From an uncultured Pseudomonadales bacterium (GTDB taxonomy: Bacteria > Patescibacteriota > Microgenomatia > UBA1400 > MFAQ01), in NCBI GenBank assembly GCA_964586045.1, contig CAZPFY010000001.1:154-64153 (forward strand): 64,000 bases of DNA, in the 5' to 3' direction. A program made the position numbers and the translations under genes. Of the stretch, positions 107 through 62,967 are shown piece by piece. How positions within the stretch are numbered: position 1 is the stretch's first letter; every line of letters begins with the position of its first letter. The notes under the pieces were generated by a model that saw only the letters and a program-made list of their open reading frames with translations, made no database searches and was not told the DNA's origin.

Positions 107-150
107 GGCGGAGATTGCTTCGGTTCAGAGTACTGAAACTCGCAATGACG
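107..150. mobile_element. MITE/RPE-like repeat, right-half copy (GGCGGAGATTGCTTCGGTTCAGAGTACTGAAACTCGCAATGACG)
   Basis: Same family as 59500..59604. It is intergenic, upstream of the rho promoter. Confidence 0.6.
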
Positions 151-6582: not shown

Positions 6583-6836
6583 TTATCGTTTCAACAAAAC
6601 CATTTATAAGGCAACTAGCTGATTTGATTCGGAAAAATAATAAATATAAAATTAAGGTGGCAAGGATATTGAAGTTAATGGATTTTGACCTTAGACATCC
6701 TTCTTTAAGAATTCACAAAATAAAAGGAGTAGACTACTATTCTGTGTCTGTAGACATGAAGATTAGAATACTCTATGAAAAAGATAGCAATATGATTCGT
6801 TTAATTGAGATAGGTAATCATGATGAAGTTTATTGA
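6579..6836 (+). CDS. RelE/ParE-family toxin-like protein
   Basis: 85 aa. It is translationally coupled to the upstream RHH gene. The C-terminus KIRILYEKDSNMIRLIEIGNHDEVY resembles RelE/ParE toxins. Confidence 0.5.
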   Translation: MIIVSTKPFIRQLADLIRKNNKYKIKVARILKLMDFDLRHPSLRIHKIKGVDYYSVSVDMKIRILYEKDSNMIRLIEIGNHDEVY

Positions 6837-7596
6837 AGAAATAATTAAGTGGGGGAAGCTGACACCAATATATGATTTGTTGGGGAAGCGGTCGTATGCC
6901 CAGAGCGGGGAGGATGTGGTGGTGGATGCTATTTTGAATCGACAGAAGAGAGGCTTTTATGTAGACGTGGGGGCATATCACCCCAAAGTTTTTTCGAATA
7001 CTTATTTGTTTTATAAACGGGGATGGAAAGGGGTTTGTGTTGAGCCAAACCCGGGGGCAAAAATACTTTTTGAGATTGTGAGACTGAGAGATAGGTTTGT
7101 GGGGTGCGGGGTGGGGGAAAAAACTCAAAAACTCAAAAACTCAAAAACTCAAAATAATGTGATGGAATATTATGTTTTTGGGGAGGGGGCGACAAATACA
7201 TTTTCGAAAAAACAAAGAAATGAAAATATACGATCTTCAAGGAGACTCCTTGAAGTTAAAAAGATTCCGGTGAAAACCTTGAAGGAGATTTTGGATGAGA
7301 ATGTGCCAAAAGGGCAAAAGATTGATTTGATGAGTGTGGATGTGGAAGGGATGGATTTGGAAGTATTGAAAAGTAATGATTGGAAAAAATATCGACCGAA
7401 GGTGGTGATTGCGGAAGATATGACCGGCGTCATCGCGAAGCGTGAAATGCTGTGGCGATCCAGAAAGGGGATGGATTGCCACGGTTCGAGTACGAAACTC
7501 GCAATGACGAATGATAGTGTTGTTGGTTATTTGGTTGGGAAGGGGTATAGATTGGTAGGGATGACGGGGTATTCGATGATTTTTAGAATCGGCTGA
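6820..7596 (+). CDS. FkbM-family methyltransferase carrying an in-frame heptamer tract and a repeat-element insertion
   Basis: GFYVDVGAYHP, VCVEPNP and IDLMSVDVEGMDLEVLKS match the Methyltransf_21/FkbM pattern. The AAAACTC x4 tract at 7128-7155 and the repeat at 7467-7509 are translated in frame. Confidence 0.65.
   Translation: MMKFIEEIIKWGKLTPIYDLLGKRSYAQSGEDVVVDAILNRQKRGFYVDVGAYHPKVFSNTYLFYKRGWKGVCVEPNPGAKILFEIVRLRDRFVGCGVGEKTQKLKNSKTQNNVMEYYVFGEGATNTFSKKQRNENIRSSRRLLEVKKIPVKTLKEILDENVPKGQKIDLMSVDVEGMDLEVLKSNDWKKYRPKVVIAEDMTGVIAKREMLWRSRKGMDCHGSSTKLAMTNDSVVGYLVGKGYRLVGMTGYSMIFRIG
7128..7155. repeat. AAAACTC heptamer tandem tract (4 units) inside the FkbM-like ORF
   Basis: AAAAACTCAAAAACTCAAAAACTCAAAAACTCAAAA, translated as KTQKLKNSKTQN. 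Confidence 0.75.
7467..7509. mobile_element. MITE/RPE-like repeat, partial copy inside the FkbM-like ORF (in frame)
   Basis: GGGGATGGATTGCCACGGTTCGAGTACGAAACTCGCAATGACG, translated as RKGMDCHGSSTKLAMT. Confidence 0.6.
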
Positions 7597-28000: not shown

Positions 28001-31000
28001 GCTAGGATTGTTGCTTATTCCGCCCGTGCCACCGTTGTAGCCGGCAGAGTTTGTGTTGACAGTAGTTCCGGTGGGAACAGTTACGGTGCCGCTAGCGCGG
28101 AAGAACATAACACCACCTTTGGGAGCGGTCCAGACTGAGGCGGTAAAGTCAGTTCCGGCATTGGAGAGAGTAACGTCGGTGTAATTGGGAACACGTTGGA
28201 GCATGACACGTTGATTGGTGGTGGCGGTACCAAGATTGGTGTCGTTGCCTGGATCATCGCCGTAGGTTTTATTTTTGGCTGTTGTAAAAGTAATGGTTGA
28301 GGTAGAGACAGAAGCAATTCTTAAAGTTTCGTAGTTGCCAACATTTAAATATTTTGTAGAAGTACCCTGAAGATTGATAAGAAGGACTTCATCGCCGGCG
28401 GATAAACAGCCGGTGGATGGGGTAGTGGAAAGGGTAGCAGTCGTGGGAGTGAGAGCGGTTACTGAATAATTGACAGCGTCTCCACCATCGGCGCAAGAGC
28501 GACCAGTAATCGAATTGGCGGTATTGATGTTGGTGTCAGTAGTGATAGCGATGGCACCATCAGAACCGGTACCATAAACATAAGTGCTACTGAGGGCAAT
28601 ATTGGTAGTTTTGAGTTTGTTGGTTGATGACGAAGTGGTATTTACCATAGCCAGATCCTGGTTGGTGGTTGTAGTCCAGTCAGAGATTTTTTTCCAAAGT
28701 GAAGTCACTGTATCGTAGAACCAACCGGTAAGAGAAAGGTCATTTGTGTTTTGATTGTGAGCAATTTCAACGTAACCACCACTTAAAGTTGCCGATTGAG
28801 TGGAGTAAGCGGTCATATCCATGGCAAGGCGGTGCCAGACAGAGTCTTGGCCATACATGAAGAGACTGCCGGTGTTGCCAATGGTGTGAACGTTGTTTAG
28901 ATTTCCAGAAATGGTGGCGCTGTTGTAGTAAATAGATCCAGCAACGCCGGTGGGGATAGCGGTTAAACTTTGGAGGGTAATAGTGCCGGAGTCATTGATG
29001 CGGAATTCGTCGCCACCAGTTGAATTCGTATTAAATGAGAGATACGTAGTTCCAGCGTCACTGATTGTTGATGAGCCAATTAAAGCTGTACCGGTAGTAC
29101 CATTACCAATTGTCAAGGCTGGGTTGGCGGTACCATCTATGGTTAGGGTACTAGAAATTTTAGCGTCTCCATTGACATAAAATTCCATATTGGATGGCAT
29201 CGAATTGGTTGAATCTCCAACTCTTAGATTACTAGTTACATTCCATTGGGTCCCTGCGGTTCCTGTAAGTTGGCGATTGGCAATACTAATTTGTTCGACA
29301 CCCAAGTGGTTGTTGATACCTTGGCTTAGAAATAGATTTTTCCAAGCTGTGCCACTAATGCCCAAAGTTGTTTCATCGTTTGCTCCTGGAACCAGATCGC
29401 CACTGTTTAGGATTTTAAGAAAAGTTAATAAGCCAGCATCACCACCCTGAGAAGTGGCAAAAGATAAATCAGCTCCGTTGAGAACGTTAATGGTTGGACT
29501 TGCTCCTCGGAAAGTAAGAGATCCTGAAGTGGAAGCATCTCCGGCTACATCAAGTTTTGAGGTTGGGGTGGTTGTACCTATTCCAATGTTGCCGGTGCCA
29601 TTGGGGTTGAGGAGAATGTTACCGGTGGTATTGTAGGTGCTGGAATTTCCGAGAGTTAAAGTTTGGCGGCGGGTTGTTCCCAAAGTTCCATTGCCGGTGA
29701 GGTAGGTTGTTCCGGCGATACTGGCAACTGGGGTGCCAAGATTGTTGTTTAGAAAAGAAAAGTTGGCACTGAGTGTTGACTGGCCACCGACGAGTAAATC
29801 AAGGGTAGAGTTTTTGGGGTAGATGGCCCCGTTGCTTGAAAGCCAATTTTCGGCAATGTTTTGGTTAGTTATTTCAGTGTCGAGATCTTTGAGGACGCCT
29901 TGAACAGTGAGAGAGTTGCTGTTTGAAAATTCATCGAAAACACCGATTAAGTAAGCACCACTGTCGTTGTTGGCAGTAGATTCGGCAAGGGTGGTGGTGC
30001 CACCAAAGATTAAATTGGCGGCGGAATTGATTTGAAGGCTGCTGGTATTGGATATGTATACGTTGCCTCCTGCGGACTGAAGGCTGAGGTTGCCAGCCAC
30101 ATCGCTAATGGAGTGGGCAACGCCATTGATCATGTTAATGGCGCCAAGATTACTAATATTAAATTTGGTGATACCAGAGGCTGAAGCACTGAAGAGTGAT
30201 CCTGTGCCGTTTTGATTTACAGTGAGTGCTGAAGTAACAGCAGAACCGGTTGCGGTATTGATGCTAGTACGGCCATCTGCTAAAACCCAAAACTTTGCAG
30301 ATTCAGTTGCCCCGGAAGAAAGTAGAATGAGTTTGCCGCTACCGGTGGCGATATCATTACCAATATATCCTGACAATAGAGAACCAGTTGTCAAATTTGC
30401 ATTTGTAGTTCTAAAAGTGTCTTCGGTAGTAGTGCCGCCAATTGCTAAAATTTGGCCGGACCCAATAGCGTCTGGTTGAATAACAATGTCTCCACCAGAA
30501 TTGGTGGCTGTTGTTAAAGAAATACTTTGGCCCTTGAGATTAAAATTTCCTGATGTTGAAACGATGGATGGTGAACTGGCGGCGATATTAAGATTGCCGG
30601 AGTTGTCAATTACGGGGACAGTGTTGATAGTTGCAGATGCTGACGCAGGATACCCCTGGAGGGTTTCGGAATTGAGGGCGTAGCCGACGGTGGCAATCTG
30701 TTGTCTGGGGGTAAGGGTTTCGGCGCCGACAGTAACTGCTAGGTAAACATCGCGATTATCACTAAAGACAGATTGGGGAATTTCACTGCCACAAACGCTG
30801 TCGCCTATGAGACTGTTAAAAACACCGTCGGAGTCCGGGGTAACAGAACAAGTACCGGTGGTATATAGTTGGCTGCCGGCGGTAAGATGATTCCAAAGTT
30901 TGAAATTGACATTGACGGCAGTGTTAATTGGAGTTCCAGATGAATCGGAGAGTCTGCCCTGGAAAGAAAGTTGTCTGCGGGGGGCGGTTAGAGAGGTGGC

Positions 31001-31891
31001 GGCTGAGCTGGGTTTGGCTTGTTTGATGATTTGGTTGTAGCCCAAAATGCCCATGGTGGTGGTAGCGATTACAAGCAAGGCGAGATGGAAGTAGGGAGTA
31101 AAAGGAAGGGCATTGTACTTGTGGTAAAAAACTGCCAAACGGCTTTTGGAGGGATTCTGAGGGTTTTTGGGTTTGGGAATAAGGCGATTGAGCCAGGCTA
31201 AGGGAGTAATTTTGGCTTCGGTTACGGTAATTTCAAAAGGATCCTTGGGAATTAGACTGCGGTTAAAACAAAAGTGAGTAAGCTTTTTAATAGATGATTG
31301 TCGTCTGCTGATAACAGAAGAGCTGGCGCGGGTTAGTTTTAGATAAGCAATGTAACTAGCTAATTGTTCGGTACTTAAAACTTGTTCGAGGTGGCTAGCG
31401 TTAAAAGGAGTTTGATTGGCAATCCAAGAAAAATAGTGATAAAGATCTGAAAGATAGTTTTTGACGGTAGAATGAGTTTTCTTTTCGTTTATTAATTGTT
31501 GTTTGAATTGTTCAAGAATTTTTTTGCTTGAAAGGTCCTTATTGTTGTTTGCATTGTTTGATGTATTTGGAGTTGGTTCGGATAAAGTTTCTATTTTGGT
31601 GATTTGATACTTGATGTTTAAGAAATTGGATAGTCTTCTGATGGAAGCAAGTCTGCGATTGGTGGTTGCGGGTGGTGTGAGAGTAGAGGATTGTTCCTGA
31701 CTGTATTTGCTGATGTATATTGATAGGTTTTGAAATACTTCGGTAAGATTAAACTGCTTTTGAGATTCCAAAAAGCGAAGAAAGTGCCTAACATCACTAA
31801 GGTAGTTTTTTATGGAAACAGCTGAAAGCCCAGACTCAATAAGAAATGAAGTGAAGAGCTTTAGGATTTCGGTATTGTTGGGCAGGTTCAT
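22046..31891 (-). CDS. giant (3281 aa) surface protein: two tandem integrase core-binding-like N-terminal domains, TM anchor, Gly-rich beta-helix-like regions, internal ~750-aa tandem duplication, C-terminal fibre-like region
   Basis: Uninterrupted 9.8-kb ORF. The two core-binding-like motifs are SIKNYLSDVRHFLRFL and TVKNYLSDLYHYFSWI. The TM is FHLALLVIATTTMGILGY. There are long GGGGG/GGAGG tracts and duplicated modules (ETLRIASVSTSTITFTT... / ETLRISSLAGNVITFTT..., and YFEDEDITN... / YFEDEDEATV...). Confidence 0.85.
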   Translation of the reverse strand: MNLPNNTEILKLFTSFLIESGLSAVSIKNYLSDVRHFLRFLESQKQFNLTEVFQNLSIYISKYSQEQSSTLTPPATTNRRLASIRRLSNFLNIKYQITKIETLSEPTPNTSNNANNNKDLSSKKILEQFKQQLINEKKTHSTVKNYLSDLYHYFSWIANQTPFNASHLEQVLSTEQLASYIAYLKLTRASSSVISRRQSSIKKLTHFCFNRSLIPKDPFEITVTEAKITPLAWLNRLIPKPKNPQNPSKSRLAVFYHKYNALPFTPYFHLALLVIATTTMGILGYNQIIKQAKPSSAATSLTAPRRQLSFQGRLSDSSGTPINTAVNVNFKLWNHLTAGSQLYTTGTCSVTPDSDGVFNSLIGDSVCGSEIPQSVFSDNRDVYLAVTVGAETLTPRQQIATVGYALNSETLQGYPASASATINTVPVIDNSGNLNIAASSPSIVSTSGNFNLKGQSISLTTATNSGGDIVIQPDAIGSGQILAIGGTTTEDTFRTTNANLTTGSLLSGYIGNDIATGSGKLILLSSGATESAKFWVLADGRTSINTATGSAVTSALTVNQNGTGSLFSASASGITKFNISNLGAINMINGVAHSISDVAGNLSLQSAGGNVYISNTSSLQINSAANLIFGGTTTLAESTANNDSGAYLIGVFDEFSNSNSLTVQGVLKDLDTEITNQNIAENWLSSNGAIYPKNSTLDLLVGGQSTLSANFSFLNNNLGTPVASIAGTTYLTGNGTLGTTRRQTLTLGNSSTYNTTGNILLNPNGTGNIGIGTTTPTSKLDVAGDASTSGSLTFRGASPTINVLNGADLSFATSQGGDAGLLTFLKILNSGDLVPGANDETTLGISGTAWKNLFLSQGINNHLGVEQISIANRQLTGTAGTQWNVTSNLRVGDSTNSMPSNMEFYVNGDAKISSTLTIDGTANPALTIGNGTTGTALIGSSTISDAGTTYLSFNTNSTGGDEFRINDSGTITLQSLTAIPTGVAGSIYYNSATISGNLNNVHTIGNTGSLFMYGQDSVWHRLAMDMTAYSTQSATLSGGYVEIAHNQNTNDLSLTGWFYDTVTSLWKKISDWTTTTNQDLAMVNTTSSSTNKLKTTNIALSSTYVYGTGSDGAIAITTDTNINTANSITGRSCADGGDAVNYSVTALTPTTATLSTTPSTGCLSAGDEVLLINLQGTSTKYLNVGNYETLRIASVSTSTITFTTAKNKTYGDDPGNDTNLGTATTNQRVMLQRVPNYTDVTLSNAGTDFTASVWTAPKGGVMFFRASGTVTVPTGTTVNTNSAGYNGGTGGISNNPSDGGESYCNANGGGGGADYDNNPVGSVGICGGGGGGGVNAATLYNANIAGSSIGGAGGGGGSAGAATGASGYGYGGGGAGGGYGTIGNGGKSGNTPTSDGVNGSGVTSGNGGTSAWTTTTGPAYAGGGGGGGTYGDTYLDKAYFGSGGSGGGAGDTGTTTYVASNGGAGGKGGGILMISAATLSVTSTGGIQSNGGAGSAAATATYPGSGGGGAGGSVKIVADTVTTSTTDLITAAGGAGDTTAVDGGTGGVGRIAVSYKNTLTANSSEPDFPTSPYLHQSGYYGIYVSKEINTTGAVNLNSFAYTETLNTYGQVEAQTRTGNTPDSTDGSWEAWKPVVTTTNIKNLNAMDATADWTATNLNAVADGTLARNVNYFEDEDITNAANKSIKLGSVGAENGYAEDTITSTDLTNFDLISAWVYATASGQIKLGIGESAATEQEEIIQIDATGTWQKVYWDISDVASASKNAITKLRITLLSPNQTVYVDSLQSEELIVASGTAPTSTPKNYFQYRFILTSSNGQATPSISNISLTYSDGASHTIDASSIRLANSTDYYSSSHLTVSETALSALSNSGITSNATGVTQAGDYDPGNGADGAGTVTSGTKVLSTDSIVGRTCADAINYSVNTLTSTTATLSTIPSTPSCLKTGDEILLINLQGTQGSIVNVGNYETLRISSLAGNVITFTTSKGKYYGDGAGDDTNLGIGVNNQKVMLQRVPNYTSVTVDSSATLSPSAYDYTTGLGGVLFFRAISAVSVAGSINATGKGYPGGTGAISTTTRSIPGHSLFYTSGVDGDGGTPLTPNNLGQNGVYSGGGGGGRHLTDGIGTGGVGTSTTGAGGGGGAGSASSNGSSYNGYGGGGGGGGYAAGGSGGTGPTIASNGDTNQSGSGTSGGSVGSGFGGGGGGGGAGNYGESSLGKLYLGSGGGGGGAGQATTGTYYSGLAGGGGGGIVIINSDTISVSGSILSKGDDSLTGTAASTQGGGGAGAGGSIKILGNTLSLGSSLVSSNGGAQIAGLSNFEGGSGGDGRVAIYYASTLTGTTSPAAAVAQTPSYNYSMYISEEMPTPNSTGYNKIKWLADLDTYGMIELQTRSGKSANSIDGTWEAWKPVVANTNKLDVIDMNTDTLWGMVDLTRADGGVARNVDYFEDEDEATVGNMTKFSSVGSPNGYSETTVTAKDLTNYDYLTAWVYATSSGNLVKFGFGESTGTEQEKTFYIQAANTWQKIYWDLTDINTTNRNAVTKLRISLPSTNTTLYVDNITADRYLTNADGSTVSSTPNEYFQYRAILTTTNPAYHPTLRSVQLDWSNGFKIVQTDMNTVRLYNKTGETIQIRLDAVVYGADLAEWYTVEDPSIEAGDLVAITGKTDPFGVPILRKTSSPNDQYLVGAISTKAGQELGITAENRRLLGLAGRIPVKIDPSSQDIKAGDSLTSSPLPGFATKAMPNDKVIGTAFEDWIPNIGKGVVLIHINNGIAPNPTTFSSRVYRLISNTNELFDETAGRFVNTVGSFAKVITGSISTNQLVSPTIETSFLTPMASTASITISPNLLSDNTQPLLIVEGQIKASTVFAKQGNFDELNTNSIVTNTITADKIYANQIEGLDAKIASLSSSFNNEEITILTNQISLKLNQNHATSSSSIASEIINNLKLGSNIVMNLLIDNLTVQQKLITPIADIDQLKVNIATVSGTLYANNIKSETIDKLKAQLDVLNEKYSTASSIFASIQEKYSQYDSLFSALDSETNPTNDPLQLSSLATESASLPTDMAFKNLNIEVLTTNDILANGSIFSQSISSFGTDLFIQPSGDKPVHLLANLMTLYPNGQIVVDGDLIVTGNIFANNLDTRTATVSGTLAVGKGELATDSAKILALFNQDGNVVGSVDASGSANFDKLTTYGLVIASGNNLDSTISGQTSSNSTIGTASIATGSSEIFINSSKINDDTLVYITPISDTNNQVLFVKSKQSHVGFTIAIPQPIEDEISFNFWLVQTK
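24000..28550. repeat. approximately 2.3-kb tandem duplication (two copies) within the second giant gene, including Gly-codon (GGN) rich tracts
   Basis: Two homologous ~750-aa protein modules with matching order of motifs. The plus strand shows CCACCACC runs at about 25.0-25.7 kb and 27.3-28.0 kb. The boundaries are approximate. Confidence 0.55.
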
Positions 31892-38458: not shown

Positions 38459-39199
38459 TTATATGTTTTTATTATCAGATGATTCTTTTATAGTATCTTC
38501 TAGGTCCTCGCTAGAAGAATAAAGGGTTAAAAGGTCAATTTGGATCGATTTTATTTTGTCCAAAAAGCTTTTGGGAAACTGAATGTTGTTGCGGCTGGAG
38601 TTGAGAAAAATAATTAAATCGGTAACCGAATTGATAACGGTGTTGATTGTGGGCTTGGCTTCGGTGGCGAGCCAGAGTAAACTGTCGGTTTCTTCTTTCT
38701 TGATGTTATCTTTTAACAAAGAAATTTTTCCCTCGGCCTCAAGATTTTTAATCATAATTTTGGCAAAAGATTGGGCGAGGGGGGAAATTAAAAGCAGGGA
38801 AAATAAATTGGCGAGAGTGAGGATATCAAACTCAAAATTGGTTTTTACTAAATAGATGGTAGCGGTACAGATAGCAATAGTGAAACTTTGGTAGCTTTCG
38901 TATATGAGGGCAAAAGCAAAAATCAAAAAATAGTATAAGAAAAAAAGTGGAGAAGACGCACCGCCAGTTGAAAGTATCAAGAGTTGGGTAATAGCGTTTG
39001 TTGCAAGGATGGTAAGAATGTTTGGGTCAAAATTGTGATATGTTGCAAGCAAAACTTTTTTGGAGACGGTGTAGAGGATTATAAGAGCTCCGCAAAGCTG
39101 GAGAGTGTAGTTTGAGGTTAAGATATTCTCACTCCACAGAAAGGGTAGTAGGCAGGAAGCGGCAATAAGGCTAGTGTGGAGAAGAAAACCTTGTTTCAT
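38459..39199 (-). CDS. polytopic membrane protein with a C-terminal soluble domain (first gene of the surface-locus operon)
   Basis: 246 aa. About five hydrophobic helices in the first 150 aa, then a charged C-terminal region. Confidence 0.45.
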   Translation of the reverse strand: MKQGFLLHTSLIAASCLLPFLWSENILTSNYTLQLCGALIILYTVSKKVLLATYHNFDPNILTILATNAITQLLILSTGGASSPLFFLYYFLIFAFALIYESYQSFTIAICTATIYLVKTNFEFDILTLANLFSLLLISPLAQSFAKIMIKNLEAEGKISLLKDNIKKEETDSLLWLATEAKPTINTVINSVTDLIIFLNSSRNNIQFPKSFLDKIKSIQIDLLTLYSSSEDLEDTIKESSDNKNI

Positions 39200-39458: not shown

Positions 39459-40058
39459 GTGTTAGATAAATTTAAAGATGTTTATCGAAAAACTGGAGAT
39501 TTGGAAAAATGGATGGGTGTTTTTGCGCTGTTGGGTGTGCTTGTTGCCTTTGTTGGCCTTTTTAGAGGTATTCTAGTGTCTCGTCAGGTTCAAATTGAGT
39601 ACCTAAACACAGATAAGAAGACTACAGAGGAAATTAAAATAGTGGTAGACATAGAGGGGGCAGTAAATAAACCGGGGGTGTACGAACTTTTAAATAATTC
39701 TAGGATAAAAGATATTTTGGTCTTGGCTGGAGGATATAGTGAAAAAGCAGATAGAACATACTGCGAAAAAATGATTAATTTGGCTTCAACCTTAAAAGAC
39801 GCTCAAAAAATTTACATCCCTTTTGTTAATGATACCCCGAAGGTGCTAGGGTATACTGAGGCTAATTCAGCTACAAAACTGATCAATATGAACACCGCTT
39901 CTGATAGTGAACTTGATACCCTTTGGGGTATAGGTGAGTCCAGAATAGAGAATATTGTGAAAAATAGACCATACCAAAGTGTCGAAGAGCTCGTTACAAA
40001 AAAAGTTTTTACGAAACAAATTTTGGAAAAAAATAAGGAGATGATAGTGGTTTATTAA
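39459..40058 (+). CDS. comEA: competence protein ComEA (SLBB plus helix-hairpin-helix DNA-binding domains)
   Basis: GTG start. N-terminal TM, SLBB-like VVDIEGAVNKPGVYEL, and a C-terminal HhH MNTASDSELDTLWGIGESRIENIV. Confidence 0.85.
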   Translation: MLDKFKDVYRKTGDLEKWMGVFALLGVLVAFVGLFRGILVSRQVQIEYLNTDKKTTEEIKIVVDIEGAVNKPGVYELLNNSRIKDILVLAGGYSEKADRTYCEKMINLASTLKDAQKIYIPFVNDTPKVLGYTEANSATKLINMNTASDSELDTLWGIGESRIENIVKNRPYQSVEELVTKKVFTKQILEKNKEMIVVY

Positions 40059-40059
40059 C

Positions 40060-41178
40060 ATGCAAAAAAGGGTTTTTGCATTAGTCTTGTTACTTGTTTT
40101 GAGAATTATTATCGGTTTTGTTATTAATGCCAGATACTATCAATTTGAACAAATTAGAGTTACGGGAAAAGTGATCAGAGTGATTCAGATAGATAATAAC
40201 TGCATCATAGATTTGGGAGTATTTAGAGCAAAGATGGAGAACCGATGCGCCTTTAAAAAAGGCGAGTTTGTGAGGGTTGTTGGCAGACCTACAGCTGGTT
40301 TGATAGAGCTTCTTGGGGGTAAAATACTCTTGAACACGGCGATATTTGATTATTCTGAAAATAAGGATTTACTTGTTATGAGATTTGATTTTTGGCAGTC
40401 CACTTTTGGGCGACTGAGAGATTATTGCAGAGAAGTTTACCAAAGATTGTTGCCTAGGAACGAGTCGGCTTTGCTTGCGGGAATAGTTTTGGGGGATAAA
40501 GAAAGTATAGGCTATGATTTTTATCAGAATATGGTGAGAAGCGGAACAATCCATGTGGCTGTGGCCTCTGGATATAACTTGATGCTGGTGGGGGGAGTTA
40601 TTTTGAATTTGTTGTTTTGGATTTTTGAAAGGAAAAAAGCTACGATCTTTGCAGTTTTGGCCATGGCTTGTTATGCGGTTCTGGCGGGGTTTGAGCCACC
40701 TGTGGTGAGAGCTTTGATAATGTCGAGTTTGTTGCTTGTTGGCGCAGTGTTGGGGAGGAAGACAGCCCCTGTTTGGTTTTTAATAATTAGTGCTTGGGTA
40801 ATGCTGGTTTGGGACATGGATTTGCTTTGGAATGTTAGCTTTCAGCTTTCGGTTATGGCAAGTGTAGGGTTAATGGTGTTTGCGCCTTGGGTACAGGAAA
40901 TATTTAGGATAAAGGGGTTGGAGAAGGAAGGAATTGGTTTGGAAAAATTCGGCTTAATAACAACGGTGTGCACTATGTTGGCAACGGCACCAGTTATTTG
41001 GTGGCATTTTGGTAGAATAAGTATAATAGGCGTATTTAGCAATGTTTTTATATTGCCACTTGTCCCTCCAGTAATGATTCTTGGAGTTTTCACACTACTT
41101 ATGCCCGGACTGTTTTTTGTGCCTACTTATGCTCTGGTCCATCTTATGGTTTTGATAATTAACTTTTTTGGAACTTGA
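40060..41178 (+). CDS. comEC: ComEC/Rec2 membrane competence domain (N-terminal DUF4131-like plus Competence domain), a separate ORF from the MBL domain
   Basis: LLAGIVLGDKESIGYDFYQNMVRSGTIHVAVASGYNLMLVGG matches the ComEC competence-domain motif. It is polytopic. Confidence 0.8.
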   Translation: MQKRVFALVLLLVLRIIIGFVINARYYQFEQIRVTGKVIRVIQIDNNCIIDLGVFRAKMENRCAFKKGEFVRVVGRPTAGLIELLGGKILLNTAIFDYSENKDLLVMRFDFWQSTFGRLRDYCREVYQRLLPRNESALLAGIVLGDKESIGYDFYQNMVRSGTIHVAVASGYNLMLVGGVILNLLFWIFERKKATIFAVLAMACYAVLAGFEPPVVRALIMSSLLLVGAVLGRKTAPVWFLIISAWVMLVWDMDLLWNVSFQLSVMASVGLMVFAPWVQEIFRIKGLEKEGIGLEKFGLITTVCTMLATAPVIWWHFGRISIIGVFSNVFILPLVPPVMILGVFTLLMPGLFFVPTYALVHLMVLIINFFGT

Positions 41179-41242
41179 CATAGATATTTTAAACCTATAA
41201 AATACTAGACAATTGAACGTAAATTGAAATTGGGAGGTACAA

Positions 41243-41431
41243 ATGCTGAGAGATTTGGCGGAGTCGCTGTTTTTTTTGGGAATGGTGGTTGTTATTATTA
41301 AGTTCGGTTGGCAGCTGGTAGACTGGATTATGAGCATGCTGTACGTTCTATCTTTTGGATGCTGCCTGGGTATTGTGGCTTTGATTGGGGGAGCCATATA
41401 TTTCTTTGGAAATAGAGAAAACTTTTTTTAA
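41243..41431 (+). CDS. small hydrophobic ORF between the two comEC parts
   Basis: 62 aa, two hydrophobic helices. It may be a remnant of the ComEC membrane region in a different frame. Confidence 0.3.
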   Translation: MLRDLAESLFFLGMVVVIIKFGWQLVDWIMSMLYVLSFGCCLGIVALIGGAIYFFGNRENFF

Positions 41432-41473
41432 TCTCACCTGATTTAGGTGGGATTTTTTGTGGCAAAATAAACT

Positions 41474-42253
41474 GTGGATTGGAAAAAGTGGGGGGTGGTA
41501 ATTGTTCTTCTTTTATCTATTTGGATATATTTTGAGTGGCCAGATAATAAACTGCATGCGGTTTTTTGTGATGTAGGGCAGGGAGACGCAGCCTTAATTG
41601 TTTTGGGTAGATTTCAAGCTTTGGTAGATACTGGGGCGTATGAAGATAAAGTTTTGCAGTGCCTAGCTGATCACGTTCCTTTTTGGGACAGACAAATTGA
41701 GCTGGTTTTTTTGAGCCATGCGGATAAAGATCACGTCGGAGCTCTGGAGGGGATAAAAAAGCATTACAAGATTGGTAATGTAATTAGTAAGGCAAAGGAA
41801 AATGATTTAATAAGATATGGAACGTTATATTTTGAGATATTAAAAGGGAGTCAAAATAATGTGTTGGTACCCATGAGCGGATCGAGTGAATCGAATGAAT
41901 CGTCGATTGTGATGAGAATGGCTTTTGGTAAGCTGTCGGTGCTTTTTACGGGAGATATTGATATGGAGAATGAATTGGCACTGATTGCTAGTGGAGTGCT
42001 AAGGCAAACAGAGGTGTTAAAAGTGTCGCATCACGGCTCTAAGTTTGCAAGTGGCTCTGAGTTTTTGGAAAAGGTTATGCCTAAGTACGCAATTGTCTCG
42101 GTAGGAAAGAAAAATAGTTATGGCCACCCAAGTAGTGATACTTTGATGCGTTTAGACACTGTTAAAACAAAAGTTTTGCGAACGGATTTAATAGGGGAAA
42201 TTGAGTTTGTGAGCGATGGGAGTCGGTTGGTCGGTGTGTCGGCAGATCGGTAA
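41474..42253 (+). CDS. comEC: ComEC C-terminal metallo-beta-lactamase domain protein
   Basis: HAVFCDVGQGDAALIV, FLSHADKDHVGAL and VSHHGSKFASGSEFLEKV form the ComEC-type MBL fold. Confidence 0.8.
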   Translation: MDWKKWGVVIVLLLSIWIYFEWPDNKLHAVFCDVGQGDAALIVLGRFQALVDTGAYEDKVLQCLADHVPFWDRQIELVFLSHADKDHVGALEGIKKHYKIGNVISKAKENDLIRYGTLYFEILKGSQNNVLVPMSGSSESNESSIVMRMAFGKLSVLFTGDIDMENELALIASGVLRQTEVLKVSHHGSKFASGSEFLEKVMPKYAIVSVGKKNSYGHPSSDTLMRLDTVKTKVLRTDLIGEIEFVSDGSRLVGVSADR

Positions 42254-45052: not shown

Positions 45053-45110
45053 GGTAGTATTATAACCTATAGTTGCTAATTTGTCAAGTTGGGGAATTTT
45101 TGGCAAAAAA
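45053..45110 (+). repeat. conserved intergenic motif copy A (GGTAGTATTATAACCTATAGTTGCTAATTTGTCAAG, then TTTTTGGCAAAAAAA)
   Basis: Near-identical ~35-bp motif found four times in the window. It may be a promoter or operator. It is immediately followed by a bidirectional terminator-like hairpin at 45112-45165. Confidence 0.6.
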
Positions 45111-46131: not shown

Positions 46132-46167
46132 GGGAGTATTCTAGCCTATAGTTGCTAATTTGTCAAG
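46132..46167 (+). promoter_or_regulatory. conserved intergenic motif copy B, probably overlapping the promoter of the 46208 gene (TTGCTA, 17 nt spacer, TAGAAT)
   Basis: GGGAGTATTCTAGCCTATAGTTGCTAATTTGTCAAG, with TAGAAT 17 nt after TTGCTA. About 40 nt upstream of the ATG. Confidence 0.5.
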
Positions 46168-50180: not shown

Positions 50181-50386
50181 TGCCAAAATTTAGTTTAAAA
50201 AAAAGAATCCCCGCTCTGGAGCGGGGTTCGGTTGGGGTGAAGTAGGTTGCTTGGCCTAAGTGTCTGTTGTCGCACCGTCGAAACGCAACAGTGGGGCTTA
50301 GCGGGCTCTAATCACACCCTTTTGGGTATGGAAGGAGGGGGAACCTCCTTTTTCGGGGCTGGATTTCCAGCAAAAGTTAAGTTGTA

Positions 50387-50421
50387 GGAGTATTTTATCC
50401 TATAATTGTTTATTTGTCAAC
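50387..50421 (+). promoter_or_regulatory. conserved intergenic motif copy C upstream of the 50525 gene
   Basis: GGAGTATTTTATCCTATAATTGTTTATTTGTCAAC is the same motif as copies A and B. Confidence 0.45.
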
Positions 50422-51568: not shown

Positions 51569-51808
51569 TTATTTTTTTGGCTTGGGGGGGTGTTTGGCCT
51601 CGGATTGTTTGATGCTGGTGCAGATGGGGCAGAGGGTTGGTTTGTCGGTTGACCAGTTTGTCGGTTGACCAGTTTGTCGGTTGATCGGTTTGTCGGTGTT
51701 TCGGAGTTGCTCGTAGACGGAGTAGACAAAAGGATTGCCACAGTTTTCGCATTTTAGAAGTTGGTCTTGCATGAGAGTATTATATCCGCTAAGGGTGGAA
51801 GAGTACAA
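51569..51808 (-). CDS. small zinc-ribbon protein with an in-frame 17-bp tandem repeat expansion
   Basis: CENCGN...CPIC forms the Cys4 pair. The central repeat encodes NRQTGQPTNWSTDKLVNRQT variants. Confidence 0.45.
   Translation of the reverse strand: MYSSTLSGYNTLMQDQLLKCENCGNPFVYSVYEQLRNTDKPINRQTGQPTNWSTDKPTLCPICTSIKQSEAKHPPKPKK
51640..51700. repeat. 17-bp tandem repeat (GTTTGTCGGTTGACCAG, about 3.5 copies)
   Basis: Direct inspection. Copies are at 51640, 51657 and 51674, plus a partial fourth. Confidence 0.85.
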
Positions 51809-58646: not shown

Positions 58647-59495
58647 ATGTATGAGACTTTGGAAAGGGATAAGTATAAAAAAGAATGGGAGAGGGTAAAG
58701 CCGGCAATAAAAAATATTTTTTATAAGGGGGATGTAAAGCTGTTGATGGACGAGAAACCAAGGTTGGCAATTGTGGGATCGAGAAGGATGACGGAGTATG
58801 GCGCAAAAATAATTGAAAAATGGATGTCAAAATTTGTTGACAGAGGAATAATAATTGTTTCTGGTTTTATGTATGGAGTAGACCAAAAAGCTCATACGGA
58901 ATGTATAAATAATGGAGGGAAAACGGTTGCGGTTTTGGGGTGGGGAATAGATTGGCAGGTGATGGATGATGATGTAGAAATGTATGAAAAAATATTAGAA
59001 AAAGGTGGATTGATATTGTCAGAATATGAAGGGAGGGCGATACCAGAGTTGTGGAAATTCCCTCAAAGAAATAGAATAGTGGCAGGAATTTGCGACGCTG
59101 TTTTGGTAATAGAGGGAGCAGAAAAAAGTGGCAGTATGATAACTGCAAGGTTGGCAAAACAGTTTGACAAAGTCCTTTTATCCTTACCTGGCCCGGTAAC
59201 GAGTAAGGTAGCCGAGGGAACAAATAATTTAATCAAAAGAGGAGAGGCAAAAATGGTAACGAGTGCGGAGGACGTTTTGAGGGGGATGGGGTTGGAGGAG
59301 GGGCAGATGAGTTTGTTGGGAGAAGTAAAAATTTTGGATCCTATTTTGGAAATTTTGGAAAATGAAAGTAAAAGTGTGGACGAGCTAGCGCGAATTTTGC
59401 GACAGCCGGTGAACGAGGTGCTTATTAAACTTAGCTATTTGAGTTTGAGGGGGTTGGTGAGTGAATCCAACGGAAAATATTTTATTGTGAGTTAG
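58647..59495 (+). CDS. dprA: DNA processing protein DprA (Smf)
   Basis: LAIVGSRRMTEYGAKIIEKW...IIVSGFMYGVDQKAHTECI...VLVIEGAEKSGSMITARLA forms the DprA Rossmann-like domain, with a C-terminal wH-like domain. Confidence 0.85.
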   Translation: MYETLERDKYKKEWERVKPAIKNIFYKGDVKLLMDEKPRLAIVGSRRMTEYGAKIIEKWMSKFVDRGIIIVSGFMYGVDQKAHTECINNGGKTVAVLGWGIDWQVMDDDVEMYEKILEKGGLILSEYEGRAIPELWKFPQRNRIVAGICDAVLVIEGAEKSGSMITARLAKQFDKVLLSLPGPVTSKVAEGTNNLIKRGEAKMVTSAEDVLRGMGLEEGQMSLLGEVKILDPILEILENESKSVDELARILRQPVNEVLIKLSYLSLRGLVSESNGKYFIVS

Positions 59496-59499
59496 CCTT

Positions 59500-59604
59500 G
59501 TCATCGCGAATCTCGTACTCGAGCTGTGGCGATCCCCGCTACACAAGATATCACTCAAAGCTCGGAGATTGCTTCGGTTCGGAATACCGAAACTCGCAAT
59601 GACG
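59500..59604. mobile_element. MITE/RPE-like palindromic repeat element, complete copy (TIR GTCATCGCGA ... TCGCAATGACG)
   Basis: About 105 bp, bounded by imperfect inverted repeats. The internal hairpin TTCGG-AATA-CCGAA is shared with other copies. It is intergenic between dprA and a terminator. Confidence 0.7.
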
Positions 59605-59623
59605 CTTTTTTTTGCATAAAAAA

Positions 59624-59650
59624 ATCCCGCTCTTGGTTATAGCGGGATTA
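59624..59650. terminator. bidirectional rho-independent terminator
   Basis: ATCCCGCTCTTGGTTATAGCGGGAT hairpin with a flanking A-run (5') and T-run (on the minus strand). Confidence 0.7.
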
Positions 59651-60313
59651 CTTGAGGTGATCGGTGTAGTTGGACTCGAGAATTGTCCACATACCAGTTT
59701 CAGAATCGAACTGAACAGTTGTGATGGAGCCAAAGGGGGGGAAATTTTCTTTGTCCCTAAAGGGGTCCATTAGTTGGTGCGGGGTTGGGTTTGGTCCACG
59801 CTCGATAAAAGTTTTTAGTGTTACCTTTACTTGGCTATGGGTATAAACTGCAATTTTTTTGTTAGCGAACTGAGAGTGGCTAAAAGCCTGAAGTATTTGA
59901 CCACCTCGCTGATGAAATTGCCAGTAGGATTCACCCCGATTCATGAAGCGAGAACGGATGTTATCTTCATTTGGATAGTAGACGACATTTCTACGCCACT
60001 GAAAATATTTTTGCAAAGTATCGTCAGTGTAGGGTCTGCCATCCGCTAATGGTCGGCTAATTTCATTTAGTAGGGAATCGGTAATAACACAATACCTTTT
60101 TTTGTGTAGCGTGTTTTTTAGCTCTTTGGCCATTTCTTCTGCGCGTCTGTAGGTACCAGAAAATACCAAGTCGGGTGGGTCATTTTTGAAGTACATAGCG
60201 ACTTTTGAAGCTTGCCGAAAACCTTCTTTACTGAGACTTTCATCCCAGTCGTGCTTTTCATCTTTTTCTGGAGTTCGGCCATGCCGAACGAGATATAGCG
60301 TGGTAACGGACAT
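59648..60313 (-). CDS. histidine phosphatase family protein (phosphoglycerate mutase-like)
   Basis: The N-terminus LYLVRHGRTPEKDE carries the RHG catalytic motif. Confidence 0.8.
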   Translation of the reverse strand: MSVTTLYLVRHGRTPEKDEKHDWDESLSKEGFRQASKVAMYFKNDPPDLVFSGTYRRAEEMAKELKNTLHKKRYCVITDSLLNEISRPLADGRPYTDDTLQKYFQWRRNVVYYPNEDNIRSRFMNRGESYWQFHQRGGQILQAFSHSQFANKKIAVYTHSQVKVTLKTFIERGPNPTPHQLMDPFRDKENFPPFGSITTVQFDSETGMWTILESNYTDHLK

Positions 60314-60512
60314 GGTACCTCCTTATAGATTTGGTTTTTATGGTGCAAAGCTAGTTGGGCGAGTATAGCACATTTGAGGTCAAAATGCAAGTATATAGGG
60401 TATGCGTAGAGGATGTGTACGGGTTAGTTGACTTGAGAAGCTAGGTGTGATATTATAGGGCAATTAGGTTATACATTTCAATATAAATCAAAAAGTTGGT
60501 CTGGAGGCTGAC

Positions 60513-61058
60513 ATGAAGTTAAAAAATAATTTAATTGTATTTTTCGTAGTGCTTTTTCTTGGAGCGTGCGCTCCCACAAAAGCCGATTTGGAGCCTGTTT
60601 CAGAAAAACCCACCTCCTTCGTTTGTTTTTTGCACGGTGAGAAGGTGATTGATACAAATACCTTGCATGGTGCCAGTTACGATCGTGAAACGATCGGCGG
60701 TCTTCGAGACCTGTACTGGATGTGGGAAGATGAAGGCGGTTTTAAGTCTCGGCCGGTGGACAATGGAGAGCTTTCTTGCGCGCAGGAAGGCTTGAGCTAT
60801 TCTGATGTGATAGCACCGTCTGAACCCCTTCAACCCTCAGAAATGGTTTGTACTCAAGATGGGGTTGAAATACTACGCACGACTACCATCGACGGAATGA
60901 CCACACAGAGGGTGTGGATTAATCCAACGGGGGATGATCAGCCTTATGCCTATACTTGGTATGAGGCGGATGGACCGCATTATCTGACCACAGATCAGTT
61001 TAGTGATAATGCAACCTTTGGTAACACTTTGAGGTGTGTGGATATTTCAGTTAAGTAA
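60513..61058 (+). CDS. putative lipoprotein
   Basis: Signal peptide with lipobox LFLGAC. 181 aa. Confidence 0.55.
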   Translation: MKLKNNLIVFFVVLFLGACAPTKADLEPVSEKPTSFVCFLHGEKVIDTNTLHGASYDRETIGGLRDLYWMWEDEGGFKSRPVDNGELSCAQEGLSYSDVIAPSEPLQPSEMVCTQDGVEILRTTTIDGMTTQRVWINPTGDDQPYAYTWYEADGPHYLTTDQFSDNATFGNTLRCVDISVK

Positions 61059-61070
61059 GCTTTGCAAAAT

Positions 61071-61100
61071 GGCTTCGAGATTCTCGAGGTCATTTTTTTT
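61071..61100 (+). terminator. rho-independent terminator
   Basis: GGCTTCGAGATTCTCGAGGTC hairpin followed by ATTTTTTTTT. Confidence 0.65.
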
Positions 61101-61203
61101 GGCATATAATATGGGTTATAGTATCCAAAGTACCCAGCCAACAGCTACCCGACAACAGCTAAAGCAGTTTGACGGGCGGGCGCAGTTTGGCGGGTGATAT
61201 TTA

Positions 61204-62838
61204 TTGAGATACAATAAAATCATGTTGGCACGAATTGAGAGCGTGGCTTGTGTGGGACTAGAGAGTTTTTTGGTGGAGGTAGAAGTGGATGTGGCGGAGA
61301 AGGGCTTCCCCGGGTTTAGTATTGTGGGGCTGGCTGACAAAGCGGTGGGTGAGGCAAAAGAGAGAGTAAAAACAGCCTTGATTAATAGTGGTTTTGAGTT
61401 TCCACAGAAGAAAATAATCGTCAATTTGGCACCGGCCGATCTGCCTAAGGAGGGATCGGCGTTTGATTTGGCGATTGCTATGGGGATTTTGGTGGCTAAT
61501 GGGGATATCGAGATAAAAACTCAAAAAATCGAAAACTCAAAAACTCAAAATATCGCTCAAAACTCGGAGATTGCTTCGGTTCGGAATACCGAAACTCGCA
61601 ATGACGACGTGGAAAGTAGCGATATATTTTTTGGGGAGTTGTCGCTCGATGGGAGTTTGCGACACACCAAAGGGGCACTTTTGGTAGCTCTTTTTGCCAA
61701 AAAAGAGAAGAGGAGGAGAGTGTTTGTGCCGGTATTGTCGGCGAATGAGGCGGCGGTAGTGCCTGGAGTAGAGGTAATGCCGGTGAGGAACTTAAAAGAA
61801 CTAATAGTTCACTTTTTGGGAGATAAGAAGATAAAACCTCTGAGAACAATTGAAATAAAAAGCTTGGTGGAAACGGCGATGCCAGACTTTGACATGGCGG
61901 ATATTGTAGGCCAGGAATCGGCGAAGCGAGCCTTGATGGTAGCGGCGGCTGGGGGACACAATATGCTCATGTCTGGGCCACCAGGATCGGGTAAAACCAT
62001 GCTCTCCAGGGCTTTACCTGGAATAATGCCCCCGATGACCGAGGAGGAGAGTATGGAGGTTACTAGGGTTTACTCGGCTTCGGGATTGATGGAAGCGGGA
62101 GAAGCGATTGTGCGCAGAAGGCCATTTCGGTCGCCTCATCACTCGACGAGCCTTGCTGGCTTAATAGGAGGTGGCAGTAGGCCTATGCCTGGGGAAGTGA
62201 GCCTCGCTCACTTGGGGGTATTGTTTTTGGATGAGATGGCGGAGTTTCCCCGGAGCGTGTTGGAGGCCATGAGGCAACCAATGGAGGATGGGAAGGTGGA
62301 GATATCAAGAGTAGCCGGGAGAATTAGCTATCCTGCGTATTTTCAGCTCATTGCTGCGGTGAACCCGTGCCCTTGTGGCTATTTGGGGCACCCAACTAAA
62401 GAATGTAAGTGTACGAGTAGAGAGGTTGAGAAGTATAAAAGAAGGATAAGTGGGCCTATTTTGGATAGAATAGATTTGCATATCAATGTCCCGGCGGTGG
62501 AGACAGAAAAGATCGTGGGGAATGTAGAAAAGGGAGAAAGCTCTCTGGTGATTAGACAAAAAATTGTCAAAGCGCGACAAATTCAAAGCACAAGGTTTGG
62601 TAAAGGGAAAATTTATTGCAATGCCCAGATGAAAAACAAGCAAGTGAAGGAGTTTTGCGATCTGGATGAGGAGGGGTTAAAAATCCTGAAATTAGCCATG
62701 GAAAAGTACGATCTGTCGGCCAGGGGCTACTTTCGGATTTTAAAGGTGGCCAGGACGATAGCGGATTTGGAGAATAGTGAGAAGATTTTGAGCTCGCATT
62801 TGGGGGAGGCGCTGCAGTACCGGGAGAGGGTGTTTTAG
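61204..62838 (+). CDS. comM: YifB/ComM-family Mg-chelatase-like AAA+ ATPase with an in-frame heptamer-tract plus repeat-element insertion
   Basis: N-terminal Lon-like ChlI domain. Walker A is MLMSGPPGSGKTM. The insertion IEIKTQKIENSKTQNIAQNSEIASVRNTETRNDDVESS lies between the ILVANGDI and FFGELSLDG motifs, which are normally about 10 aa apart. Confidence 0.9.
   Translation: MRYNKIMLARIESVACVGLESFLVEVEVDVAEKGFPGFSIVGLADKAVGEAKERVKTALINSGFEFPQKKIIVNLAPADLPKEGSAFDLAIAMGILVANGDIEIKTQKIENSKTQNIAQNSEIASVRNTETRNDDVESSDIFFGELSLDGSLRHTKGALLVALFAKKEKRRRVFVPVLSANEAAVVPGVEVMPVRNLKELIVHFLGDKKIKPLRTIEIKSLVETAMPDFDMADIVGQESAKRALMVAAAGGHNMLMSGPPGSGKTMLSRALPGIMPPMTEEESMEVTRVYSASGLMEAGEAIVRRRPFRSPHHSTSLAGLIGGGSRPMPGEVSLAHLGVLFLDEMAEFPRSVLEAMRQPMEDGKVEISRVAGRISYPAYFQLIAAVNPCPCGYLGHPTKECKCTSREVEKYKRRISGPILDRIDLHINVPAVETEKIVGNVEKGESSLVIRQKIVKARQIQSTRFGKGKIYCNAQMKNKQVKEFCDLDEEGLKILKLAMEKYDLSARGYFRILKVARTIADLENSEKILSSHLGEALQYRERVF
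61515..61553. repeat. AAAACTC-type heptamer tract inside comM, immediately upstream of the repeat-element copy
   Basis: AAAAACTCAAAAAATCGAAAACTCAAAAACTCAAAAT, translated as KTQKIENSKTQN. Confidence 0.75.
61563..61605. mobile_element. MITE/RPE-like repeat, right-half copy inside comM (in frame)
   Basis: CTCGGAGATTGCTTCGGTTCGGAATACCGAAACTCGCAATGACG, identical over 43 nt to the 59562..59604 part of the intergenic copy. Translated as SEIASVRNTETRND. Confidence 0.7.
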
Positions 62839-62840: not shown

Positions 62841-62967
62841 CGTCATTGCGAATCTCGTACTCGAGCTGTGGCAATCTCCGAGGTTGAGTGAAATTTAGCA
62901 GGCGGGGATTGCTTCGTCGTTTTGCTCTCCCGAGTAGATACTCGGGATCCTAGACTCGCAATGACGG
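62841..62967. mobile_element. MITE/RPE-like palindromic repeat element, complete copy (CGTCATTGCGA ... TCGCAATGACGG)
   Basis: About 127 bp with terminal inverted repeats. The internal GGGGATTGCTTCGTCGTTT segment is shared with the 4399..4452 copy. It is intergenic, downstream of comM. Confidence 0.7.

Follow-up and report, generated by a model that had tools for sequence, protein, structure and literature searches.

CGTC-tagged hairpin repeats, probably of the Ssn-related class, in a Collierbacteria-like member of the Candidate Phyla Radiation

The 64,000-nt stretch analyzed here (positions 154 to 64,153 of contig CAZPFY010000001.1, assembly GCA_964586045.1; hereafter the window) carries short palindromic repeats both between and within genes, which raises the question of what these elements are and how they reached their present sites. 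The contig derives from groundwater metagenomes, and among named organisms its ComM protein is most closely related to those of Candidatus Collierbacteria (Microgenomates), with approximately 77% identity; the host is a Collierbacteria-like bacterium of the Candidate Phyla Radiation (CPR). The copies are probably CGTC-tagged repetitive extragenic palindromic (REP) units (Ssn-related motifs, SRMs), forming an 'ATTGC-stem' subfamily with nuclease-less miniature pairs in this CPR host.

A scan of the window with the 11-mer TCGCAATGACG, allowing up to one mismatch, returned 11 occurrences against 0.55 expected, and a looser two-box scan (GATTGC..CGCAATGAC, up to one mismatch per box) returned 13 units against 1.66 expected and a shuffle maximum of five. 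These 13 units are arranged as four inverted pairs and five single units. The complete pairs, with their CGTC ends outward, are located at 4375-4451, 7428-7509, 59499-59604 and 62841-62966, and the single units, all in identical orientation, at 110-150, 3256-3295, 3397-3456 (a degenerate copy), 3662-3696 and 61566-61606. Motif scans and reading of the individual sites confirmed all nine sites listed in an earlier note on this DNA. However, that note recognized only two complete copies, while the window holds four, as its sites 4399-4452 and 7467-7509 are the right arms of complete pairs. Similarly, its site 3441-3456 exists, but is only the tag end of the degenerate 60-nt unit. The reported 43-nt identity of 61563-61605 with the copy at 59500-59604 was correct; positions 59562-59604 and 61564-61606 are identical over 43-44 nt, and the 59.5-kb and 61.6-kb copies show 94% similarity over 64 nt, reaching into the spacer. 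On the same contig, a further single unit lies 135 nt upstream of the window (L001:9562-9604) and a further pair approximately 3 kb downstream (L249:15888-15993), and within the window a stretch of 52 kb, from 7.6 to 59.5 kb, is devoid of hairpin units. Since the window sequence is identical to contigs in three independent assemblies, the repeats are not an assembly artefact.

On its tag strand the unit reads 5'-CGTC / ATTGC - GAG - variable inner hairpin - YNS - GCAAT / C-Y-R-G-3', and on the opposite strand, which the earlier reader used, (G)GA-TTGC-YNCG-[inner hairpin]-CTC-GCAA-TGACG. It is 32-60 nt long, with a basal stem of 5 bp and an interior of 17-45 nt that is usually a hairpin itself. 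All clear units have the stem ATTGC...GCAAT or ATCGC...GCGAT, which begins with complementary A and T, and a CGTC or TGTC tag is present on 12 of the 13 window units. The tag-side logo, anchored on the tail side only (n = 332), gave C 78%/T 15%, G 93%, T 94% and C 95%, and the tail logo, likewise anchored on one side only (n = 376), gave C 99%, Y 98% (C/T 60/38%), A/C (53/32%) and G. The four pairs of the window and the one downstream of it are all head-to-head, none being tail-to-tail, and in the first scans an inverted partner was found for 190 of 302 units. Pairing inside a unit is under selection, because compensatory changes from T·A to C·G are observed: among left arms (the search itself had fixed the right arm of each pair), 83 have T·A as the third stem pair and 11 have C·G, with three mixed cases (Fisher p 9e-12). 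Both stem forms occur within the window, ATCGC/GCGAT being present in the left arms at 59499 and 7428; covariation in the fixed GTTC..GAAAC subtype was uninformative, as the variation was too small. Folded as single-stranded DNA (ssDNA) and compared with shuffles, most single units behaved as predicted (z -0.9 to -3.6), those at 3660 and 3394 were no better than shuffles, and the pairs reached z -2.4 to -5.1. The common unit, the folding and the compensatory changes agree with the earlier view of one palindromic, hairpin-forming family.

In support of the assignment to a known class, the two logos match the head CGTCAT and the tail AATCYRG of the NTS repeat of Neisseria as well as the definition of CGTC-tagged REPs. 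The latter were described by Di Nocera, De Gregorio and Rocco (BMC Genomics 14:522; PMC3733652) as families CGTC-1 to CGTC-4, and are defined by an unpaired CGTC tag (variants TGTC and CCTC), a stem starting with A and T and a CCA-like tail (Di Nocera et al., 2013). Head-to-head dimers prevail among them, intragenic in-frame copies are known, no dedicated transposase is associated with them, and the class includes dRS3 of Neisseria as well as RPE-4 and RPE-6 of Rickettsia (Di Nocera et al., 2013). The units of the present family likewise have the unpaired CGTC/TGTC tag, the stem started by A and T and a short CC(A)-type tail, occur predominantly as pairs with tags outward, next to singles and occasional arrays, have no adjacent transposase, and include in-frame copies within genes. 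The peptides encoded by them (VIA.., ..LAMT, ..ARND) are not among the intragenic repeats of that paper, in which CGTC-tagged REPs are reported from five phyla, CPR/Patescibacteria not being one of them. The earlier note had regarded the family as previously unannotated; this does not hold, as the class was published in 2013 (PMC3733652) and its partner enzyme in 2025 (PMC11893778). The class is thus already known, and is represented here by a long-hairpin subfamily in a CPR host.

The likeness to NTS and the other SRMs (Chenal et al., 2025; Nat Commun 16:2388; PMC11893778) concerns the ends of the unit. The head CGTCAT and the tail AATC-Y-R-G are identical, including the GTC before and the C after the palindrome, which are the positions weighing most for binding and cutting in Neisseria (Chenal et al., 2025), and the distribution along the DNA is clustered in both cases. 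In contrast, the interior is TGC..GCA with a long variable insert in the window units and TCCCGC..GCGGGA in NTS, and the intragenic share is 38% of units in CPR-rich loci versus 2% for NTS in N. meningitidis (Chenal et al., 2025). The comparison with Rickettsia palindromic elements (RPEs) made in the earlier note was apt: RPE-4 and RPE-6 are CGTC-4 and CGTC-1 units, respectively (Di Nocera et al., 2013), and, as with the window copies, RPEs are palindromes lying in frame in loops of many unrelated genes of a small, reduced genome. Nevertheless, their stems and peptides differ (RPE-6: VIPAKAGI / LDSRFRGND), as does the host phylum, and RPE-1 is a longer palindrome unrelated to the window units. 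The Correia elements of Neisseria, which the note had also invoked, are unrelated, the relevant neisserial repeat being dRS3/NTS. QMITE2 of Coxiella, considered since it also occurs in Bradyrhizobium, was rejected as a GTAG REP.

The family extends far beyond the nine listed loci. The unit pattern was found at no fewer than 120 loci in phage contigs and at least 120 in named genomes, with more than 12 phyla among the matches listed, and the window's own subtype was found at at least 120 loci in metagenomes. The named-genome matches listed include Bradyrhizobium, sphingomonads, Rickettsiales, Gammaproteobacteria, Bacteroidota, Chloroflexi, Nitrospiraceae, Planctomycetota, Firmicutes, Melainabacteria, Myxococcota, Armatimonadetes, Saccharibacteria and Berkelbacteria, and the sequences have a uniform architecture throughout. 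Rfam searches with the window and canonical copies, at gathering thresholds and with E up to 10, returned no relevant family, and a full-text literature search with sequence strings of the repeat returned unrelated primers only.

The chief peculiarity of the repeats in this bacterium is that many of them are placed in frame within coding genes. When the two flanking copies are included, seven of the 11 loci lie within genes and keep the frame open. Four of them are in the gene for a DUF4012 protein (3110-4657, minus strand), where they are read in three frames: the single units at 3256-3295 (plus strand; translated NRHCEADFGSAAAIHP; fold z -3.6), 3397-3456 (plus strand; GGTTGC ... CGCAATGACT, translated TPVIASQPLAPDLDPGDSAATYA; this degenerate copy has a 7-bp inner hairpin and folds no better than shuffles) and 3662-3696 (plus strand; translated SLRGGTPTWQSI), and the head-to-head pair at 4375-4451 (translated VIARSETTKQSPRRGLLQNSVLHNDD; z -5.1), the left arm of which has the variant tag CGTCATTGTGA. 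The gene for an FkbM-family methyltransferase (Methyltransf_21; 6820-7596, plus strand) holds the pair at 7428-7509 (translated GVIAKREMLWRSRKGMDCHGSSTKLAMTN; z -5.1), with the left tag CGTCATCGCGA and the compensated stem mentioned above. The comM/yifB gene (Mg-chelatase-like AAA ATPase; 61222-62838, plus strand) contains a truncated pair at 61543-61606 (plus strand), consisting of a spacer remnant (61543-61565) and the right unit (61566-61606) and translated as ...NIAQNSEIASVRNTETRNDD, so that the window ComM has 538 aa versus 505-507 aa in insertion-free orthologues. The seventh intragenic locus is in a UPF0102/NERD protein gene beyond the window. Among the intergenic copies, the single unit at 110-150 (plus strand; GGAGATTGCTTCGGTTCAGAGTACTGAAACTCGCAATGACG) lies upstream of rho, with its CGTC tag reading on the minus strand. 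The pair at 59499-59604 (z -2.4; left tag TGTC, left stem ATCGC/GCGAT) is placed between the dprA stop codon and a terminator shared with the convergent His_Phos_1 gene, and the pair at 62841-62966 (z -3.75), whose right arm has a long inner hairpin, is immediately 3' of the comM stop codon.

Given that several copies are translated in frame, one could imagine a repeated protein module, i.e., a conserved peptide that was duplicated as such. There is next to no chance of this: translation of the repeat DNA in three frames and from both strands yields peptides with no relation to one another (VIARSETTKQS, SLRGGTPTWQS, RHCEADFGSAAAI, EIASVRNTETRND, KLAMT), some copies are intergenic (110-150, 59499-59604, 62841-62966) and the insertions are absent from orthologues. 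It is thus a DNA-level repeat and not a protein domain; with the wide occurrence of the motif, this means that the refuting outcomes named in the earlier note were not obtained. Inspection of the unit shows a stop in one of its six reading frames, that of CAA-TGA-CG, while the other five are open, and copies may survive within genes because of these open frames and because they would land in surface loops or linkers. In an AlphaFold model of ComM, the insertion is the coil of lowest confidence; with a mean confidence score (pLDDT) of 45.7 the model is too poor to prove a surface loop. Across CPR-rich metagenome loci (mean GC 0.44), 95 of 251 units (38%) are located 90 nt or more inside the boundaries of open reading frames (ORFs) of at least 150 aa, compared to 67% of random positions.

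The copies are insertions that have been gained and lost between close strains. Insertion polymorphism, which the earlier note had proposed to look for, was seen at comM, the 59499 spacer, FkbM and DUF4012. In an alignment of 30 ComM orthologues (baseline 505-507 aa), the hot-spot after ANGDIE is empty in the closest relative (P0002) and in others, holds a single unit in P0009 and a full pair in P0007, an A-rich 8-nt repeat alone in P0003 and P0013, and the repeat together with a unit in the window. The 40-nt comM unit is identical at 39-40 of 40 positions in three strains, although the flanking coding DNA is visibly diverged in the same alignment. Two relatives have a dprA/His_Phos_1 spacer that lacks the pair at 59499, the FkbM insertion of the window and the UPF0102 insertion beyond it are absent from the orthologues, and the four DUF4012 units align to columns that are gapped in most homologues. 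FkbM orthologues (baseline approximately 215-230 aa) have three loop hot-spots with many different palindrome-derived peptides. Copy numbers in relatives are low, namely none in 16.5 kb, one in 21.5 kb and one pair in 8 kb.

In the loop hot-spots of ComM and FkbM there are also peptides of the kind that other CGTC-type hairpin families encode (FMDSCLRRNG, RSGPGMTE, HSELDSESRK..WMPDQVRHD, RFARND, GLQGDSLK), seen in P0008, P0015, P0030, P0063, P0122, P0188, P0135, P0151 and P0177; several hairpin families have thus hit the same sites across Collierbacteria and Microgenomates. The A-rich tandem repeat that abuts the comM copy (61515-61550, plus strand) consists of 4.5 copies of the 8-nt AAAAACTC, is in frame (KTQKIENSKTQN) and may or may not be part of the hairpin element. 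Such repeats (3.5-4.5 copies of the 8-nt period) also occur at 1922-1949, 4576-4605, 7119-7154 and 38918-38949, with the same strand sense throughout, and three of them are in frame within genes (KTQKLKNSKTQ in FkbM; KTQKIENSKTQN in ComM). Variants of them (KNSRNQELK, KESRTQELK) occupy the loop hot-spots of hairpin units in orthologues, sometimes alone, and the spacer of the 59499 pair resembles them. Much of a set of genes for natural competence is present in the window, namely a comEA-like gene and comEC (Competence and Lactamase_B domains) at 39459-42253, and dprA and comM at 58647-62838; of these, dprA and comM are flanked or interrupted by hairpin units, which is not the case for comEA and comEC.

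The earlier note called the family MITE/RPE-like. A classical miniature inverted-repeat transposable element (MITE) would be an internally deleted insertion sequence of a DDE transposase, moved in trans via its terminal inverted repeats. Full copies of 77-126 bp with inverted ends and polymorphic insertion would suit such an element, yet we find this origin scarcely credible. The supposed terminal repeats are two self-contained REP units in inverted orientation; single units, with both conserved boxes present, are common and exist alone. Compensatory changes keep the pairing within one arm, not between arms. Moreover, no target-site duplication was detected in three filled-versus-empty comparisons (comM and 59499 loci), and the gene tables of the window contain no transposase domain. 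Likewise, when the ORFs found up to 1.5 kb from 240 loci were clustered all against all, no transposase clusters emerged, but only phage structural genes, IF-1 and ABC transporters, in a range that is too narrow and keyed to strict motif matches.

In place of a transposase, the partner of SRMs is the GIY-YIG ssDNA nuclease Ssn (Chenal et al., 2025). SsnA of N. meningitidis, a 94-aa GIY-YIG protein, binds just one strand of the NTS hairpin (CGTCATTCCCGCG..GCGGGAATCYRG), and this solely in single-stranded form, cutting a few nucleotides upstream, and does not bind RNA; Ssn homologues across phyla are flanked by their own SRMs, the Neisseria system restricts incoming transforming DNA, and the published nucleases belong to CDD family cd10448 (Chenal et al., 2025). 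Annotated homologues of the Ssn type exist in Patescibacteria. From a list of ORFs with a unit on either side, followed by profile searches, we obtained five GIY-YIG matches in the first 240 loci, and in the 120 metagenome loci three strong ones (L293, L363, L255), a contig-end fragment (L259) and a weak one (L366, E 3e-05); overall, eight loci have strong matches and the fragment at L259 is the ninth. All five of the proteins compared with Pfam match PF01541, whereas NCBIfam matches are weak only and the best solved relatives are UPF0213 proteins (E 0.006).

All nine GIY-YIG genes examined have CGTC-type units immediately on both sides, their tags pointing outward, and the unit type varies with the gene it brackets. 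Cassettes of this subfamily in the form motif-gene-motif, with a single-domain GIY-YIG gene of approximately 100 aa, were found at L293, L363, L255, L150 and L158. The window's own unit subtype is present at L293, L363, L255 and L259; the cassette at L293 is composed of three copies of CGTCATTGCGAGTTTCGGTACCCCGAACCGAAGCAATCCC, the gene and GGGGATTGCTTCGGCTCGAATACGAGACTCGCAATGACG, and the unit at L259 has exactly the sequence of the one at 7474-7508 in the window. On the minus strand, the 59499 pair and the L249:15888 pair are made of the two cassette arm types in cassette order, and since types and order are the same, the window pairs are read as nuclease-less miniatures of the cassette. From these relatives we infer that Ssn may act on the units of the present genome. 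An Ssn protein (P0241) found on 61 contigs was rejected as evidence of cassette mobility, all contigs representing one locus of one population.

Two further features were noted at cassette loci. On L158:4800-5650, a contig of an uncultured member of the Planctomycetota, a unit-ssn-unit cassette is located at the 5' end of a pheT-like gene, of whose start approximately 115 nt are duplicated on both sides, as if insertion had regenerated the 5' end of the target. Head-to-tail arrays of three identical units with identical spacers and periods of 44-54 nt occur at L293:6112-6254, L363:5861-5983, L010:11383-11521 and L063:6479-6599, the first two directly upstream of the ssn gene.

The layout of pairs around a single-copy gene also recalls REPINs of the GTAG-tagged REPs, which are moved by the REP-associated tyrosine transposase (RAYT), a Y1 HUH enzyme. 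The two systems have in common a tag and hairpin in inverted pairs that are the non-autonomous partners of a unit-bracketed single-copy gene, singlets interpreted as decayed pairs, the absence of target-site duplications and a strand asymmetry suggesting ssDNA. However, the tag is CGTC and not GTAG, no tyrosine transposase flanked by CGTC repeats was found by Di Nocera et al. (2013), and the gene between the units belongs to the GIY-YIG nucleases rather than Y1_Tnp. We therefore judge movement by a RAYT to be highly improbable.

The single units show a pronounced strand bias. The plus strand of the window has an extreme GC skew, ranging from +0.03 to +0.39 (approximately +0.26 to +0.39 across most of its length, typically close to +0.3) and unaffected by the direction of the genes; it falls to +0.03 only across a Gly-rich repeat region at 24-28 kb. 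In the CPR-rich loci, 164 of 176 distinct single units (93%) have their non-tag reading on the G-rich strand (p 3e-35; 63 loci versus four when counted by locus), and the five single units of the window all follow this bias regardless of the strand of the host gene. In the mixed-phylum samples the bias was weaker, and significant for phage contigs (31 of 41). The accessible parts of PMC3733652 and PMC11893778 mention neither a strand bias relative to GC skew nor an intragenic share in CPR, and both the 38% share and the 93% one-way single units in CPR-rich contigs look new.

These data also bear on whether the repeat is a structured RNA element, i.e., a terminator, mRNA stabilizer or small RNA conserved for transcript function. 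The hairpins are stable, and the intergenic copies at 59499 and 62841 lie just 3' of stop codons, as do many REPs. Nevertheless, copies are both sense and antisense to their host genes and in three frames, their orientation tracks GC skew and not the coding strand, no Rfam match was obtained with E up to 10, and SsnA has no RNA binding (Chenal et al., 2025). An RNA function as the reason for conservation is very unlikely in our view, and individual copies may have a secondary effect at the RNA level.

By analogy with SsnA of Neisseria, the units would fold into hairpins when single-stranded, and a single-domain GIY-YIG nuclease of approximately 100 aa would bind the hairpin and nick that strand only, a few nucleotides 5' of the CGTC tag. 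The window pairs would relate to the unit-nuclease-unit cassette as REPINs do to RAYT genes. Single units are probably decayed pairs with one arm kept. We infer that the G-rich strand is the lagging-strand template, which is most often single-stranded; a cleavable CGTC strand located there would be cut, and pairs would consequently decay to the safe arm. In the kept arm, the cleavable strand would be on the C-rich strand, the presumed leading-strand template, which is less often single-stranded. The ComM series, with a pair, a right arm plus spacer remnant and a right arm alone, fits such decay.

Beyond this, the hairpin/Ssn pair of CPR may constitute an active, replication-coupled mobile system, a GIY-YIG counterpart of REPIN-RAYT, although we put this forward as a tentative and rather doubtful possibility. 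Nuclease-less inverted pairs would be copied into ssDNA and frequently end up in stretches of genes that encode loops, those of the competence genes comM and dprA included, where they would remodel the proteins in frame. An arm with its cleavable strand exposed on the lagging-strand template would then be selectively destroyed. If true, this would account for the 93% one-way single units and provide the first mechanism for the spread and decay of CGTC REPs, as both key papers left open how these are copied and spread (Di Nocera et al., 2013; Chenal et al., 2025).

A number of points weigh against the interpretation given above. In the accessible parts of the paper by Di Nocera et al. (2013), the stem of CGTC REPs measures 8-9 bp and their loop 4-5 nt, whereas in the window units a basal stem of 5 bp is combined with unpaired triplets and an inner hairpin that varies; exceptions with other loops, such as Bradyrhizobium CGTC-1, are mentioned there. 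None of the 13 window units, and nothing else in the window, matches the published SRM search sequence HGTCWYN(0-2)YYVSBRHN(0-5)WNVSBRGN(0-2)RNCYNB (Chenal et al., 2025), which control NTS sequences do match. Elsewhere, many pair-type units (TCGCTTCGCTCC interior) do not have a self-complementary interior. No ssn gene was found in the 81 kb searched for this genome, and mobilization by Ssn is a hypothesis, no transposition chemistry being known for this nuclease. In addition, the strand bias is weak in mixed-phylum genomes (13 of 20, not significant), and we assume that GC skew reflects replication direction in this lineage.

The lack of an ssn gene in the 81 kb could also mean that the copies are mere relics of an earlier invasion, in a genome that no longer has the nuclease and in which they are neither active nor functional. 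In keeping with fossils, relatives have few copies and degeneration is seen in several units (3397-3456, left arm of 4375). On the other hand, copies 2 kb apart are identical over 43-44 nt, a unit is identical at 39-40 of 40 positions across strains with diverged flanks, and copy content differs between very close strains, which together point to recent gain, conversion or constraint. We regard a purely fossil state as unlikely.

If the assignment to CGTC-tagged REPs and SRMs is correct, it extends the class to the CPR, and since the long-hairpin subfamily is missed by the published search pattern, current surveys undercount it. In-frame insertion of the Rickettsia style occurs outside Rickettsia, in hot-spot loops that were struck repeatedly by different hairpin families, and it is relevant to the annotation and modelling of CPR proteins. 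The orientation bias of the single units fits a nuclease acting on one strand of ssDNA and offers a testable handle on gain and loss. Finally, biotechnology might gain sequence-specific ssDNA cutters, for which every hairpin/nuclease pair is a candidate.

Other features of the region may be mentioned. A possible relic, the tail half of a unit without the tag end (GAAGATTGCTTCGGTCCAGA; 405-428, plus strand), lies in the N-terminal extension of rho. A 36-nt direct repeat is present in three copies (45053-45088, 46132-46167 and 50386-50421; 78-92% identical), and its reverse complement resembles a canonical promoter (TTGACA, 17 nt, TATAAT). At 51640-51697 there is a 16-nt tandem repeat (GTTTGTCGGTTGACCA, 3.6 copies, 95% matches). 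Two giant ORFs occupy the minus strand at 9271-19608 (3445 aa) and 22046-31891 (3281 aa), the latter with long ACC/CCA (Gly-rich) tracts and an internal duplication (24316-24411 versus 26626-26721, at a spacing of 2310 nt). Approximately 5-8 kb upstream of the window (L001:1851-4637), a 928-aa protein with Hint/intein-type domains is encoded, and its neighbours are a ParE toxin and a sortase-like gene.

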